A stretch of 46,827 nt of DNA from Actinomycetota bacterium (GTDB lineage: Bacteria; Actinomycetota; Acidimicrobiia; Spongiisociales; UBA4744), in the NCBI GenBank assembly GCA_013152275.1, contig JAADGS010000090.1, forward strand, positions 62,001 through 108,827, read 5' to 3'. The notes beneath the pieces are model-generated. The model saw nothing but the letters and a program-made list of their open reading frames with translations, was not told the origin of the DNA and made no database searches. Made by a program: the position numbers and the translations under genes. Positions 18,940 through 22,960 of this stretch are shown here, piece by piece (the first letter of the stretch is position 1; each line of letters begins with the position of its first letter).

Positions 18940-19278
18940 TCAACGTTGCGGCTCGGCCCATCCGCCCATGAGATGGAAATGCAGATGGAAGACCGTCTGC
19001 CCCGCTGCGGGACCGACGTTCGTGACAACGCGCCACCCCTGATCGAGCTGCCTCTCGCGAGCGATACCTGCCGCCGTGATGAAGATCTCCGCCAGCAGAC
19101 CACCTTCGGCACTCGTGATCTCCCCCGCAGAGTCGGCAACGTGCCGCTTGGGGATGATCAGAACGTGGGTCGGGGCCACGGGATTGATGTCGTTGAAGGC
19201 GAGAACATGGTCGGTCTCCGCGACAACATCCGCAGGGATCGAGCCTTCAACGATCTTGCAGAAGAGGCAGTCCTTCAA
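18940..19278 (-). CDS. Histidine triad (HIT) nucleotide-binding protein
   Basis: DCLFCKIV, AFNDINPVAPTHVLIIPK and AGQTVFHLHFHLMGG. Confidence 0.95.
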   Translation of the reverse strand: MKDCLFCKIVEGSIPADVVAETDHVLAFNDINPVAPTHVLIIPKRHVADSAGEITSAEGGLLAEIFITAAGIARERQLDQGWRVVTNVGPAAGQTVFHLHFHLMGGWAEPQR

Positions 19279-20527
19279 CGAGCGCTCCTTTCAGGTGTTC
19301 CTTCCCCGTCGAGGCTACCAACACGGGCGCCACGCCACCGACGAGGCTCGCAGCGCCTCGGAACGTCACTCGCGCATAGGTGTCGGTGTATCCACTCAAG
19401 CGGGCCTCCCCGGTCGTTGCCTCCGGCACGGCCTTCTCGACAAGCACGTGCACGGTCCGACCTTGGTGACGCGCGAGCCAACGCCGTCGGATGCCGGCGC
19501 CGAGTGCCCGTAGCGTGCGGGATCGTTCTCGCTTGACCGAAGCATCGACCTGCCGGGGGTCGTCCGCCGCAGGTGTCCCCTCTCTCGGCGAGAAACGGAA
19601 GACGTGCAGCTTCTCGAACCCTACGGCCTCGACGACCTGGAGAGTCCTGGAGAAAGCCGCATCATCTTCGCCCGGAAAGCCGACCATCACATCGGTGGTG
19701 ATCGCCACACCGTCGATTTGGGATCGTGCCGCTTCCACAACCTCCAGGAAGAGATCCAGCGTTCCTGGCCGTCGCATCGCCTGCCACAGGTCTGGATCCC
19801 CTGTCTGCAAGGGGATGTGAAGATGCCGGCAGAGTTTCGGCTCGGAAGCGATCATGTCGAGAAGGGAATCGTCCACCTGTGAGGCCTCGATGGAGGAGAG
19901 ACGGATCCGCTTCAGTCCCGTGAGCGCCGCGAGGTCGCCGAGGAGCGCACGCAGCGCGCCCCGCTTGCCGACGTCGTACCCGTACTTTCCCAGATGTACG
20001 CCCGTGAGAGTCAGTTCCCGAACTCCGAGGTTCACCAGCCTGCGGGCGCGTGACAACACCTCGTCACCGTCCGTGCTGTGCAACGTTCCCCTGGTCCGGG
20101 GAACGATGCAGAACGTGCAGTGCTCGTCGCATCCCGTTTGCACCTTGAGGTTCCTGCGCGGACTCGGAAAGAGGACCGGGACAGGCGCACCGGCACCGAT
20201 GTACTCGGCGACACGGCCGGCGAGGCCGTCTTTGACCGGCAGCACCGCATCAACGCCCTCCATGGCGGCAACATCTGCCGATCGGGCGACCGCATAGCAA
20301 CCGGTGACGACCACGGTGGCATCCGGGAACTCTCGTACGGACCGCCGGATCAGTTTGCGAGATGCGGACGATGCCTCCGAGGTGACGGTGCACGTGTTGA
20401 CCACGACGACGTCCGGTGTCGAGCCACCGGTGCCGATACCACGATCGGCGAGAGCGAGAAGGATCTGATCACTCTCGGCCTGGTTGAGCCGGCACCCGAG
20501 CGTTCTGAGCACTCCAGTTCGTCCCAT
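19247..20527 (-). CDS. mtaB: tRNA methylthiotransferase MtaB (radical SAM, MiaB/MtaB family)
   Basis: TLGCRLNQAES, NTCTVT, VTGCYA, KVQTGCDEHCTFCIVP..RG, HLHIPLQ, TTDVMVGFPGE and HVFRFSPREGTPA. Synteny rsmE-mtaB-HIT. Confidence 0.88.
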   Translation of the reverse strand: MGRTGVLRTLGCRLNQAESDQILLALADRGIGTGGSTPDVVVVNTCTVTSEASSASRKLIRRSVREFPDATVVVTGCYAVARSADVAAMEGVDAVLPVKDGLAGRVAEYIGAGAPVPVLFPSPRRNLKVQTGCDEHCTFCIVPRTRGTLHSTDGDEVLSRARRLVNLGVRELTLTGVHLGKYGYDVGKRGALRALLGDLAALTGLKRIRLSSIEASQVDDSLLDMIASEPKLCRHLHIPLQTGDPDLWQAMRRPGTLDLFLEVVEAARSQIDGVAITTDVMVGFPGEDDAAFSRTLQVVEAVGFEKLHVFRFSPREGTPAADDPRQVDASVKRERSRTLRALGAGIRRRWLARHQGRTVHVLVEKAVPEATTGEARLSGYTDTYARVTFRGAASLVGGVAPVLVASTGKEHLKGALVEGLPLLQDR

Positions 20528-20549
20528 GAGGTGGTGAGGGTACACGCGT

Positions 20550-20594
20550 GGCTCGCTTCGCGAGCCCGCCTGGCGTTGCGTATTTCGTAACGCG
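20550..20594. repeat. GGCTCGC-TTC-GCGAGCC hairpin plus a CGTATTTCGTAAC heptamer remnant (relative of the 2941-2995 and 27333-27378 elements)
   Basis: Perfect 7-bp stem at 20550-20566, then cgtatttcgtaacgcg at 20579-20594. Confidence 0.6.
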
Positions 20595-20683
20595 GCCCCT
20601 ATGTGGACCCGATGCCGAGGGGGCGAGCGTCACGGCTCTTGCCGGTCACTGATAGCTCGCAGTCGGAAACCGGCCGCTGGAAG

Positions 20684-21160
20684 CTAGGCCGAGTCTCCCA
20701 ATCCGAGCTCGCTGAGGACGCTCGTGATACCGTCTTCGGTGTTCTCGAGAAGCCCTCCGAGGATCTGAAGATCGCTGCGACGCAGGGTCAAGACGCGTCC
20801 ATTGAAGTCCTGGCGCATCAACTGAATGGCACGAAGAAAACGCTCGACGATGTCTCCGGTCTGCCCGTCCGAGTGCTCGACCTTCTCCAGGTCGATCGTG
20901 ACGCCCCCACTACTCCACGATGTCGCTCCGGTTCGCTCGGCCTCCGGCAGGAGTTGCTCGATCGGAACACCGTAGACGGCCGCGAGCCGGTGCATACGCG
21001 GAAGCGACAGGCTCCGCTCCCCGCGCTCGTAGGCGCCGAGAACAGATGCCTTGAACTCGAATGCAGACAGCTCTTCCACATCCTGTAGGGAAAGCCTCTT
21101 CTGGCGTCGAATCGCCCTCAGCCTTCGACCAACAGACTGGTTATATGTCGCCTCCGTCAT
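20684..21160 (-). CDS. bldD: BldD-like XRE transcriptional regulator with a C-terminal c-di-GMP-binding domain
   Basis: VGRRLRAIRRQKRLSLQDVEE...KASVLGAYERGER...YGVPIEQLLP parallels Streptomyces BldD (LGAKLRAIRTQQGLSLHGVEE...YERGDR...YGVPVQELLP, from memory). C-terminal RQDFNGRVLTLRRSD fits RxD-X8-RxxD. Start ATG 21160 with a GGAGGG RBS. Confidence 0.85.
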   Translation of the reverse strand: MTEATYNQSVGRRLRAIRRQKRLSLQDVEELSAFEFKASVLGAYERGERSLSLPRMHRLAAVYGVPIEQLLPEAERTGATSWSSGGVTIDLEKVEHSDGQTGDIVERFLRAIQLMRQDFNGRVLTLRRSDLQILGGLLENTEDGITSVLSELGLGDSA

Positions 21161-21191
21161 CAGCCAGACTCCCTCCGAACAACACCCCCGA

Positions 21192-21212
21192 AGTGTCACT
21201 CTCAGTGACACT
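21192..21212. promoter_or_regulatory. Perfect palindrome AGTGTCACT-CTC-AGTGACACT containing a BldD box (putative bldD autoregulatory operator)
   Basis: Core GTCACTCTCAGTGAC (21195-21209) differs at one position from the BldD consensus NTNACNCWGNGTNAN. It overlaps a TAGAGT -10-like hexamer (minus strand 21215-21210). Confidence 0.72.
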
Positions 21213-21893
21213 CTACCCGGTGGCGACCCTTTTGTCACCCCTCTGCGTGGTGTTTGTTCGGAGAAGTGCCGCACCGACGATTGCTGCCGTCTCGACTCTC
21301 AGAATCCGGCCACCCAGACTGACCGGCGAACCGGGGACCTCTCCGGCGACGAACCCTCCTTCGGGCCCGATCAACAGGGTCACATCGCCCTGAGCAGGCG
21401 AAATCGGTTCACCGCCGGGATCTGCCACAAGGAGTCTGCCCTCCAGGTCTTCAACGTCGACGAGACCGTCCTGGATCTCCATCAACCATGCTCCTCTGCT
21501 CTGTTCGAGAGCGGACCGGGCCCACGAACGTACCTTGTCCACTTTGGGCGCTCGTGTATTGCCGTGCACGGTGCGAAGCCAGACCAGCCGTCCGATGCCC
21601 AGCTCACCGAGCTTCTCGACAAGGAATCTCGTCCGTTCGCTCGAACGCGGTGGTGCAACGGCAATGGTGATGGCGGCAGCCGGAGAGCCGACGCCGACTT
21701 CTTCACCTCGCAGTACCGCTCCGCTCGAGAGCGTCCCTTCACCGGTTCTTCCCCTGCCATCGGTGTAGGAGACCGTTGCCCCATCGCCAAGGCGCACGAC
21801 GTCGTACAAATGGTGCCTGGCCGCTTCGGACATCGGAATCGTCGAGCCGCTCCACGGCGGTTCCAGCAACAGGTGCGGCACGTGTCGCATCAC
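21213..21893 (-). CDS. rsmE: 16S rRNA m3U1498 methyltransferase RsmE
   Basis: HHLYDVVRL, VEKLGELGI, ALEQS and LLIGPEGGF...SLGGRILRVETAAI. Follows dnaJ. Confidence 0.93.
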   Translation of the reverse strand: MMRHVPHLLLEPPWSGSTIPMSEAARHHLYDVVRLGDGATVSYTDGRGRTGEGTLSSGAVLRGEEVGVGSPAAAITIAVAPPRSSERTRFLVEKLGELGIGRLVWLRTVHGNTRAPKVDKVRSWARSALEQSRGAWLMEIQDGLVDVEDLEGRLLVADPGGEPISPAQGDVTLLIGPEGGFVAGEVPGSPVSLGGRILRVETAAIVGAALLRTNTTQRGDKRVATG

Positions 21894-22960
21894 CGAAAGC
21901 GCCGTCTGGAGCGGACCGCATCCCCGCGAAGCTCGGCGAATTCGCGGAGCACCCGCTCTTCCTCTTTGGAAAGGCGCTCCGGAACGACGACCTCGACGAC
22001 AACGTTGAGGTTGCCTCGTCCCCGTCTTCCCAGCCGCCCCATCCCCTCGCCGGAAATCGTGATCGTCTGCCCTGGTTGCGTTCCTGGTGGAATCGTCACG
22101 TTCATCGATTCGCCTTCGATCAGCGGAACCGAGACCTCGGTACCGAGTGCAGCTTGTGCGATGTCGATGGGAACGACGCAGGTGAGATCGTCACCATCCC
22201 TGACGAATCTCGGGTCGGCCTGGACCCGGATCTCTACGTAGAGGTCACCTGCCTGGGCGCCATGAGGAGCAGCTTCCCCGCGTCCCGCCAGCCTCAACCG
22301 AGTTCCGGTCGACACCCCCTGGGGAATCTCGACACTCACGGTGTGTTCCTCCCGGACGACTCCTCGACCGCCACACACACGACACGGCTCTGCCACGAGA
22401 CGACCGCTGCCATGGCACAGGTCGCAGGTCGTCAGTGTCATCATCTGACCGAAGATGGAACGTCGTGCGACCTGCATCGAGCCCGTGCCGTGGCATTGGC
22501 GGCACGTCTCTACCGACGTTCCGGGAGCGGCGCCGACCCCGGCGCATTCCCTACACGTCGACAGCGCCCGGAACTTCAGCTCCGACGTCGTCCCAAAGGC
22601 GGCATCGGCCAGGCTGATGCGTGCCTCGACGGCAACGTCTCTGCCTCTGGCCGGCCTTCGCTGTCCTCCAAAACCGAAGGCGCCACCGTTTCCGAACACC
22701 GATCGAAGCAGATCGTCGAATCCGCCCATCAGCAAGTCGCCGAGGTCGATCGTTTCTCCGTGGTCGAACGCCCGACGTCGATCAGGATTGGAGAGCACCT
22801 CGTACGCCTCGGCCACCTCTCGGAAACGGGCGTCGGCGCCCGGATCGTCCGGGTTGGCATCGGGATGGGTCTCTCGAGCCAGCCGGCGGAACGCCCTCTT
22901 GATCTCGTCCTGGTCGGCGTCCTGAGAGACACCCAGGATGGAGTAGTAGTCCTTACGCAT
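21890..22960 (-). CDS. dnaJ: Chaperone DnaJ
   Basis: J-domain with HPD, four CxxCxGxG repeats, and GDLYVEI and GTQPG in the C-terminal domain. Confidence 0.96.
   Translation of the reverse strand: MRKDYYSILGVSQDADQDEIKRAFRRLARETHPDANPDDPGADARFREVAEAYEVLSNPDRRRAFDHGETIDLGDLLMGGFDDLLRSVFGNGGAFGFGGQRRPARGRDVAVEARISLADAAFGTTSELKFRALSTCRECAGVGAAPGTSVETCRQCHGTGSMQVARRSIFGQMMTLTTCDLCHGSGRLVAEPCRVCGGRGVVREEHTVSVEIPQGVSTGTRLRLAGRGEAAPHGAQAGDLYVEIRVQADPRFVRDGDDLTCVVPIDIAQAALGTEVSVPLIEGESMNVTIPPGTQPGQTITISGEGMGRLGRRGRGNLNVVVEVVVPERLSKEEERVLREFAELRGDAVRSRRRFR

Follow-up and report, generated by a model that had tools for sequence, protein, structure and literature searches.

The role of BldD beyond the sporulating actinomycetes has been an open question since the early origin of its gene was noted in 2013. 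The window, i.e. the whole 46,827-nt stretch of DNA analysed here, raises it again, as it carries a bldD gene in what an earlier note on this DNA had taken for an Acidimicrobiia-like host and a non-sporulation setting. Both assignments were supported: 12 of 15 related records belonged to the Acidimicrobiia and five of these 12 gave proteins identical to those of host-family genomes, and no match to the sporulation gene SsgA was found in the host genome (3.07 Mb, 100% complete), compared to six matches in a Streptomyces-type control genome. A search of the host genome for flagellin also gave no match, and for this reason a flagellar BldD regulon was not proposed. Overall, the reading we favour, with a probability of roughly 0.58, is of a BldD that probably forms dimers with c-di-GMP and whose predicted role is repression at promoters marked by the palindrome RYCAC-nnWnn-GTGRY: that of bldD itself and those of the genes for Flp/Tad pilins, surface proteins and an FtsH-like protease.

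In a first step, we established what the gene encodes (Table 1). The earlier description of a BldD homologue with an XRE N-terminus was borne out: the 158-aa protein passed the PF21179 (BldD-like_C) cut-off of 27 bits, and its nearest solved structures were the BldD domains 2EWT (the best PDB match) and 4OAY/5KHD. An AF2 model built from 74 rows (mean pLDDT 79.9) had BldD structures as its five best Foldseek matches, both domains superposing at rmsd 1.2–1.7 A and the C-terminal domain on 4OAZ/4OAY/5KHD at 1.2–1.3 A. The match to NF050110 (TransRegBldD) had an E value of 9e-38 but reached only 129.5 bits, below the curated cut-off of 250. Reciprocal best hits were obtained with three genomes whose BldD passes that cut-off, and a return search with one such BldD had a single match in the host, the gene at 20684..21160. 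Given the reciprocal best hit and the score below the cut-off, the gene is a divergent BldD orthologue outside the narrow NF050110 equivalog; judging from these searches, it is also the only BldD orthologue of the host. The exact RxD-X8-RxxD signature reported previously was confirmed, with an alignment of RQDFNGRVLTLRRSD to the signature of BldD in 4OAY/5KHD that needs no gap. The bare R-x-D-x8-R-x-x-D pattern is not rare, occurring in 24 of 2863 predicted host proteins (our own gene calls on the host genome), and as it means little alone, the signature is credible through its homologous position in the PF21179 domain.

Table 1 Features of the bldD locus in window coordinates.
Feature	Position	Strand	Basis
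bldD orthologue, 158 aa, ATG to TAG	20684..21160	-	ORF, homology, fold
XRE helix-turn-helix DNA-binding domain, aa 11-70	20951..21130	-	PF13560/PF01381; 2EWT E 1.2e-15; Foldseek rmsd 1.3 A
BldD C-terminal c-di-GMP-binding domain, aa 87-153	20702..20902	-	PF21179 52.3 bits; Foldseek to 4OAZ/4OAY/5KHD
RxD-X8-RxxD signature = RQDFNGRVLTLRRSD, residues 116-130 (R116, D118, R127, D130)	20771..20815	-	sequence, alignment
Ribosome-binding site GGAGGGAG of bldD	21169..21176	-	sequence
Predicted BldD operator GTCACT-GAG-AGTGAC	21195..21209	.	consensus match, conserved in relatives
Predicted sigma-70-type bldD promoter (-35 GTGACA, 17 nt, -10 TAGAGT)	21210..21238	-	within rsmE 3' end
rsmE, upstream neighbour	21213..21890	-	PF04452, TIGR00046
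dnaJ, conserved synteny	21890..22960	-	context gene
MtaB-like methylthiotransferase, downstream neighbour	19247..20512	-	TIGR01579 343.8 bits, just below cut-off 357
HIT-family gene	18940..19278	-	PF01230

The ligand site was then compared residue by residue with that of Streptomyces BldD, for which nine c-di-GMP contacts are named in the available part of PMC4151990. Six of them are identical in the 158-aa protein (I110, R114, D116, N118, R125 and D128, Streptomyces numbering), S123 is replaced by Thr, and two phosphate contacts are altered, K84 to Gly (Gly86) and R130 to Gln (Gln132); the same part of PMC4151990 describes Lys84 and Arg130 as conserved in sporulating actinomycetes. The signature, which the earlier note had called intact, is so in its four specificity residues and not in the two phosphate contacts. 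D116 and D128 are required for a functional complex according to PMC5499655, which in the available portions of its main text mentions neither K84 nor R130. R114, D116, N118, R125 and D128 were invariant in 58 of 58 class rows (seven duplicates of 65 having been dropped) and in 30 of 30 rows from other classes, all selected by BldD similarity, so that degenerate copies are under-represented. Modelling two C-terminal domains together with four c-di-GMP molecules gave a median of 0.24 against a mark of 0.42, and this value was given no weight either way.

These replacements are an argument for an alternative explanation, namely that a true BldD sits on the boxes described below but has for the most part lost its coupling to c-di-GMP, or binds the ligand weakly, as the basic residues that bind phosphate have been lost. 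The modest set of host cyclases would fit this as well, with three GGDEF matches of which two are full-length (GGDEF and GGEEF) and one is partial, next to two EAL matches and HD_5 proteins. However, the guanine-reading residues are all invariant, positions 84 and 130 vary in other classes too, and position 126 is Arg in the 158-aa protein and in 42 of 58 class rows, where it may compensate for a lost phosphate contact. Moreover, the C-terminal domain never occurred without a GGDEF match: all 180 PF21179-positive class genomes had one, 179 of them strong (E better than 1e-25), while the 71 PF21179-negative genomes had a strong match in 17 cases, only a weak one in 22 and none in 32, although the 251 genomes of this sample are related and not independent. 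Family f4 bears on both sides. PF21179 was missed in 29 of its 35 genomes, only a weak GGDEF match was found in 20 of those 29, and three f4 BldD copies (L178–L180, from G022, G033 and G059) adjoin rsmE and have an intact-looking HTH but have lost RxD motif 1, which makes a natural loss of c-di-GMP control possible and provides a lineage without this signature motif as a natural control; in one f4 genome whose BldD lacks motif 1, a 16.2-bit box is still found upstream of bldD, as uncoupling would allow. On balance we consider uncoupling unlikely and c-di-GMP sensing by the 158-aa protein likely, and dimerisation bridged by c-di-GMP is quite probable.

A candidate operator was identified directly downstream of the bldD -10 element, over the expected transcription start. 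This palindrome, GTCACT-GAG-AGTGAC, agrees with eight of the nine fixed positions of the Streptomyces BldD box nTnACnC(A/T)GnGTnAn, as quoted in the available part of PMC7374567. An unseeded palindrome search of 57 class bldD upstream regions returned nnCAC-n5-GTGnn at 12.4 bits, compared to 6.0–6.3 bits in 10 shuffles, which ignore the relatedness of these non-independent sequences, and the class consensus was RYCAC-nnWnn-GTGRY. The same motif was recovered independently by an unseeded search of FtsH-like promoters alone, as ACCACTnnnAGTGGT, which gave 30 of the 57 bldD promoters a score of at least 10 bits, the background being 1.7%. The bldD site was the top match in the host genome at 18.9 bits, being itself within the training set; intergenic host sites of at least 16 bits numbered six, this site included, with 0.5–0.7 expected, and those of at least 13 bits numbered 25, with 9–11 expected. 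Whole-genome counts, which are dominated by coding background, gave no support for a genome-wide enrichment: RYCACTNWNNGTGRY did not outnumber its reversed control in 251 class genomes (host 15 vs 15), and a wider pattern exceeded its control in nine of nine close genomes (host 42 vs 27), an f4 genome having 26 vs 25. The boxes are also not an artefact of extended -10 elements, as one of 16 host GTG[GC]TAnnnT sites reaches 10 bits and the ftsH-like boxes lie one base off that register, which rules this explanation out.

Selected genes were next compared across relatives by footprinting (sites of 10 bits or more within 200 nt; host background 3.3–3.9%). The top host sites were found at bldD, a Flp pilin gene, a TadE/Tad cluster, a sortase gene, a lasso-peptide locus, a polysaccharide sugar transferase gene, genes for cell-wall-binding and SdrD-B proteins, an S8 peptidase gene followed by a GAF-GGDEF-EAL gene, and the gene of an FtsH-like AAA+/M41 protease. 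The FtsH-like gene carried a box in 27 of 30 loci (30 of 32 matches were taken as loci) and in eight of nine families, and in 15 of the 27 a TAnnnT hexamer follows the end of the box after 0–1 nt; the host box is at G000:C58:32085. For Flp pilin genes, counting the best locus of each genome and including the host, a box was present in 17 of 30 loci, mostly 50–62 nt before the start; at flp1 its right half-site shares bases with an extended -10 element, and at flp2 a second, stronger box lies upstream in five genomes. On the host contig G000:C71 the flp1 and flp2 boxes are near 168535 and 168178. In a wider sample, Flp boxes were present in eight of 20 loci of families f2, f9 and f12, in five of 18 loci of other orders (two of 20 loci had no called pilin) and in two of 17 f4 loci (two of 37 genes), both at atypical positions, and most f2 genomes had no flp box despite an intact BldD. 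TadE minor pilin loci had a box in 15 of 28 cases (240-nt window), and an SdrD-B surface protein gene in five genomes (G000, G001, G005, G006 and G009), with a further paralogue at 7.7. The regulon, which the earlier note had to leave unknown, can now be replaced by a predicted one made up of an operator and its target promoters.

Other candidates were set aside. The boxes at the sugar transferase, flippase and S8/GGDEF-EAL genes were common to the host and one congener only, and a REC-GGDEF cyclase gene had one in four of 22 genomes, all of one genus, so that a conserved cyclase feedback loop was rejected. Upstream of the host whiG, cpaB and stand-alone cyclase genes no box was found, the best score at whiG being 1.4 bits. 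The box of the class E-like sortase gene (13 of 29 at 10 bits or more vs one of 29 downstream) fell within the first codons after start correction, where protein conservation may explain it, and a box inside the coding sequence of the NarL-type regulator gene upstream of flp1 was likewise left out. One unpublished genome (G034) contributed one row to the relative tallies, one of the 27 FtsH-like boxes and one of the 22 cyclase loci (a negative), and four others (G277, G321, G388 and G359) entered the phylum tally given below, the first three also the tree and the 30 other-class rows; the conclusions are independent of all five.

Several observations were made alongside. The FtsH-like AAA+/M41 protein (L109:4205-5893, G000:C58) has HExxH and Walker A motifs and scores 282 bits against an FtsH cut-off of 600; its gene, found in 32 of 41 relatives, is divergent from a ComF-like gene and hpf. 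The sortase gene (L098:6432-9921, G000:C52) is divergent from a DUF5317 gene, a pairing that recurs in 21 of 29 loci, and lies beside genes for two HD-domain proteins, one of them HD_5-positive. A lasso-peptide-like locus (L099:3361-8663, G000:C86) encodes a 40-aa candidate precursor with a 16.4-bit box 87 nt upstream, PqqD, a B2 protein, an ABC transporter and a nucleotidyltransferase, and two divergent multiheme cytochrome c genes (MtrC/MtrF-like domains; L103:6070-9319, G000:C9) have a 13.4-bit box in common.

How would BldD act on these promoters? By analogy with Streptomyces BldD, a c-di-GMP tetramer would bridge two C-terminal domains and thereby turn DNA binding on. The position of the boxes, over the start site at bldD and, at the pilin and protease genes, filling the spacer between -35 and -10, suggests that bound BldD would block RNA polymerase. 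High c-di-GMP would then keep bldD, the Flp/Tad pilins, some surface proteins and the FtsH-like protease off, a fall in c-di-GMP would release them all, and the BldD programme would here concern the cell surface and attachment, not sporulation.

The spacer position is also used by MerR-type activators, and high c-di-GMP usually favours attachment. It is therefore conceivable that BldD with c-di-GMP activates the spacer-site promoters (flp, tadE, ftsH-like), high c-di-GMP turning adhesion on, which would suit the tight spacing between the ftsH-like boxes and the TAnnnT hexamer; BldD has also been described as an activator in S. scabies (available part of PMC12879927). Activation is nevertheless rather unlikely, given that the bldD box covers the start site, that BldD is described as a repressor in the parts available of PMC4151990, PMC8325347 and PMC4255298, and that the flp promoters have a second conserved palindrome beside a NarL-type regulator, a more natural activator. 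This second palindrome, [AT][AG]GGTC-N4/5-GACC[CT], closely precedes many flp promoters of the order, those of f2 and f4 among them, and adjoins the genes of the NarL-type response regulator and a HisKA_3 kinase (L096:10317-12714, G000:C71; flp loci L111–L200); we regard it as a candidate activator site for Tad pili. Repression by BldD, rather than activation, is thus probable from the position of the sites.

A further possibility is that the palindrome belongs to another transcription factor, with bldD as one of its targets. The class motif departs from the Streptomyces consensus at positions 2, 3, 13 and 14; our matrix gives only 6.8 bits to three of the four Streptomyces-type bldD promoters, yet these match nine of nine published consensus positions; and many f2 genomes have BldD and no flp box. 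Against this stand the eight matching consensus positions of the host site, the class-wide presence of the motif at bldD promoters, the 14 of 30 bldD promoters from other classes that score 10 bits or more, the listing of bldD as a BldD target in S. coelicolor (available part of PMC4255298) and the fading of the boxes in f4, the family with a degenerate BldD. The HTH also departs from that of Streptomyces BldD at several residues, and the sequences point to a drift of the box and of these residues alike. Another factor is quite unlikely, and the palindrome is very probably the binding site of this Acidimicrobiia BldD.

The locus itself, with the gene order hrcA-dnaJ-rsmE-bldD-mtaB-like-hit, places the reading frame between rsmE and mtaB, as had been reported. 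The earlier claim that bldD was inserted in a housekeeping operon was not supported, since this is the normal bldD site across the class and the gene has its own predicted promoter. One promoter-like site was found upstream of bldD compared to 0.1 expected in shuffles, and its -35 and -10 elements recur in relatives of the same family. The rsmE stop codon coincides with the first three bases of the predicted -10 element (window 21210-21215). No terminator-like site was found in window positions 20400-21400, and mtaB and hit may therefore be co-transcribed from the bldD promoter by read-through. A recent horizontal insertion of a Streptomyces-like bldD, the practically negligible alternative for which one could cite that none of 30 other-class bldD loci has dnaJ, rsmE or mtaB neighbours within 1.5 kb, is refuted by class-wide synteny (dnaJ or rsmE adjoins bldD in 54 of 58 non-duplicate class loci) and further opposed by the identity of only 38% to Streptomyces-type BldD, a GC content of 0.61 and GC3 of 0.72 that match those of the neighbours, and a quick unrooted tree that groups 64 of the 65 class rows in a single clade (SH-aLRT 97). 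bldD is a long-standing resident of this locus. mtaB was the next gene after bldD in 21 of the 58 loci. Regarding distribution, bldD was found in 36 of 41 relatives, PF21179 in 180 of 251 class genomes, and NF050110 at E 1e-12 or better in 84 of 201 phylum genomes, five above the cut-off, some of the weak matches being to the HTH only. Several Acidimicrobiia genomes have two or three PF21179 matches, and five genomes of family f61 of another class (G283, G325, G339, G365 and G415) have four BldD-like paralogues each.

Compared to Streptomyces BldD (2EWT, 4OB4, 4OAY, 4OAZ, 5KHD, 5TZD; PF21179; NF050110), the protein is thus alike in its XRE HTH and winged-helix C-terminal domain, in RxD-X8-RxxD, I110 and N118, in its single copy and co-occurrence with GGDEF proteins, and in having, at the promoter of its gene, a 15-bp palindrome built on an AC-n5-GT core. 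It differs in its identity of 38%, whereas published homologues in sporulating actinomycetes share 77–99%, in its score below the NF050110 cut-off, in K84G, R130Q and S123T, in the shift of the Acidimicrobiia box to RYCAC-nnWnn-GTGRY and in its dnaJ-rsmE-bldD-mtaB locus, and also in a host with no SsgA match and no box at whiG, where the predicted targets are pilins, surface proteins and the FtsH-like protease. The presence of BldD here is not in itself new: section 9 of PMC4255298 (Chandra and Chater, 2013), in the part available, reports a convincing bldD orthologue in Acidimicrobium, a member of the same class, and places the gene in very early actinobacteria, before the sporulating actinomycetes. 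That section suggests a general stationary-phase role in simpler actinomycetes, and its available text gives no ligand residues, operator or targets. In the literature searched, which covered few subscription papers, no study turned up that addresses how an Acidimicrobiia BldD binds its ligand, or what its operator or targets are, and none among the matches listed links BldD with Flp/Tad pili.

The closest precedent comes from Rubrobacter, whose type IV pili are under the control of the RsiG-(c-di-GMP)-WhiG switch (PMC8325347; PMC12871210); the available parts of both papers hold nothing on BldD outside Streptomyces, and PMC10746217 does not mention BldD. Both cases would place a developmental c-di-GMP switch of Streptomyces on pili, in Rubrobacter in a unicellular actinobacterium, but RsiG-WhiG pairs a sigma factor with an anti-sigma factor and works on type IV pili, while BldD is here a predicted DNA-binding repressor of Flp/Tad pili. 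The host has a FliA/WhiG sigma factor scoring over the cut-off and a protein in which two RsiG-type motifs were recognised by pattern match only, at G000:C61:19332-20003 and C99:6428-6952. Sigma-28-like promoters of the form TCAA-N15/16-[GT]CCGA were seen at 20 host sites, and the same shape is conserved before the REC-GGDEF cyclase gene. From their N-terminal sequences, we take genes behind these promoters to resemble pilT, pilB and cheA.

While the BldD gene itself is an expected member of its family, what is new is the predicted operator and a predicted non-sporulation regulon built around Flp/Tad pili and the FtsH-like protease, with a possible overlap with known Streptomyces targets. An ancestral BldD circuit, as the earlier note had proposed, is unproven, given an unrooted tree and targets whose occurrence is patchy beyond the order of the host. 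We offer only as a tentative and rather doubtful idea that, before sporulation evolved, BldD acted as a c-di-GMP-dependent switch of adhesive Flp/Tad pili, surface proteins and the FtsH-like protease, beside WhiG-RsiG on type IV pili. If true, both master developmental switches of Streptomyces would have begun as regulators of surface attachment, and the Acidimicrobiia would retain the circuit. With a predicted operator and named promoters, the question of what BldD does outside sporulating actinomycetes is reduced to a few direct binding and expression tests, and if the predictions hold, they would extend the WhiG-RsiG precedent, in which actinobacterial c-di-GMP developmental switches were re-wired from pilus control.
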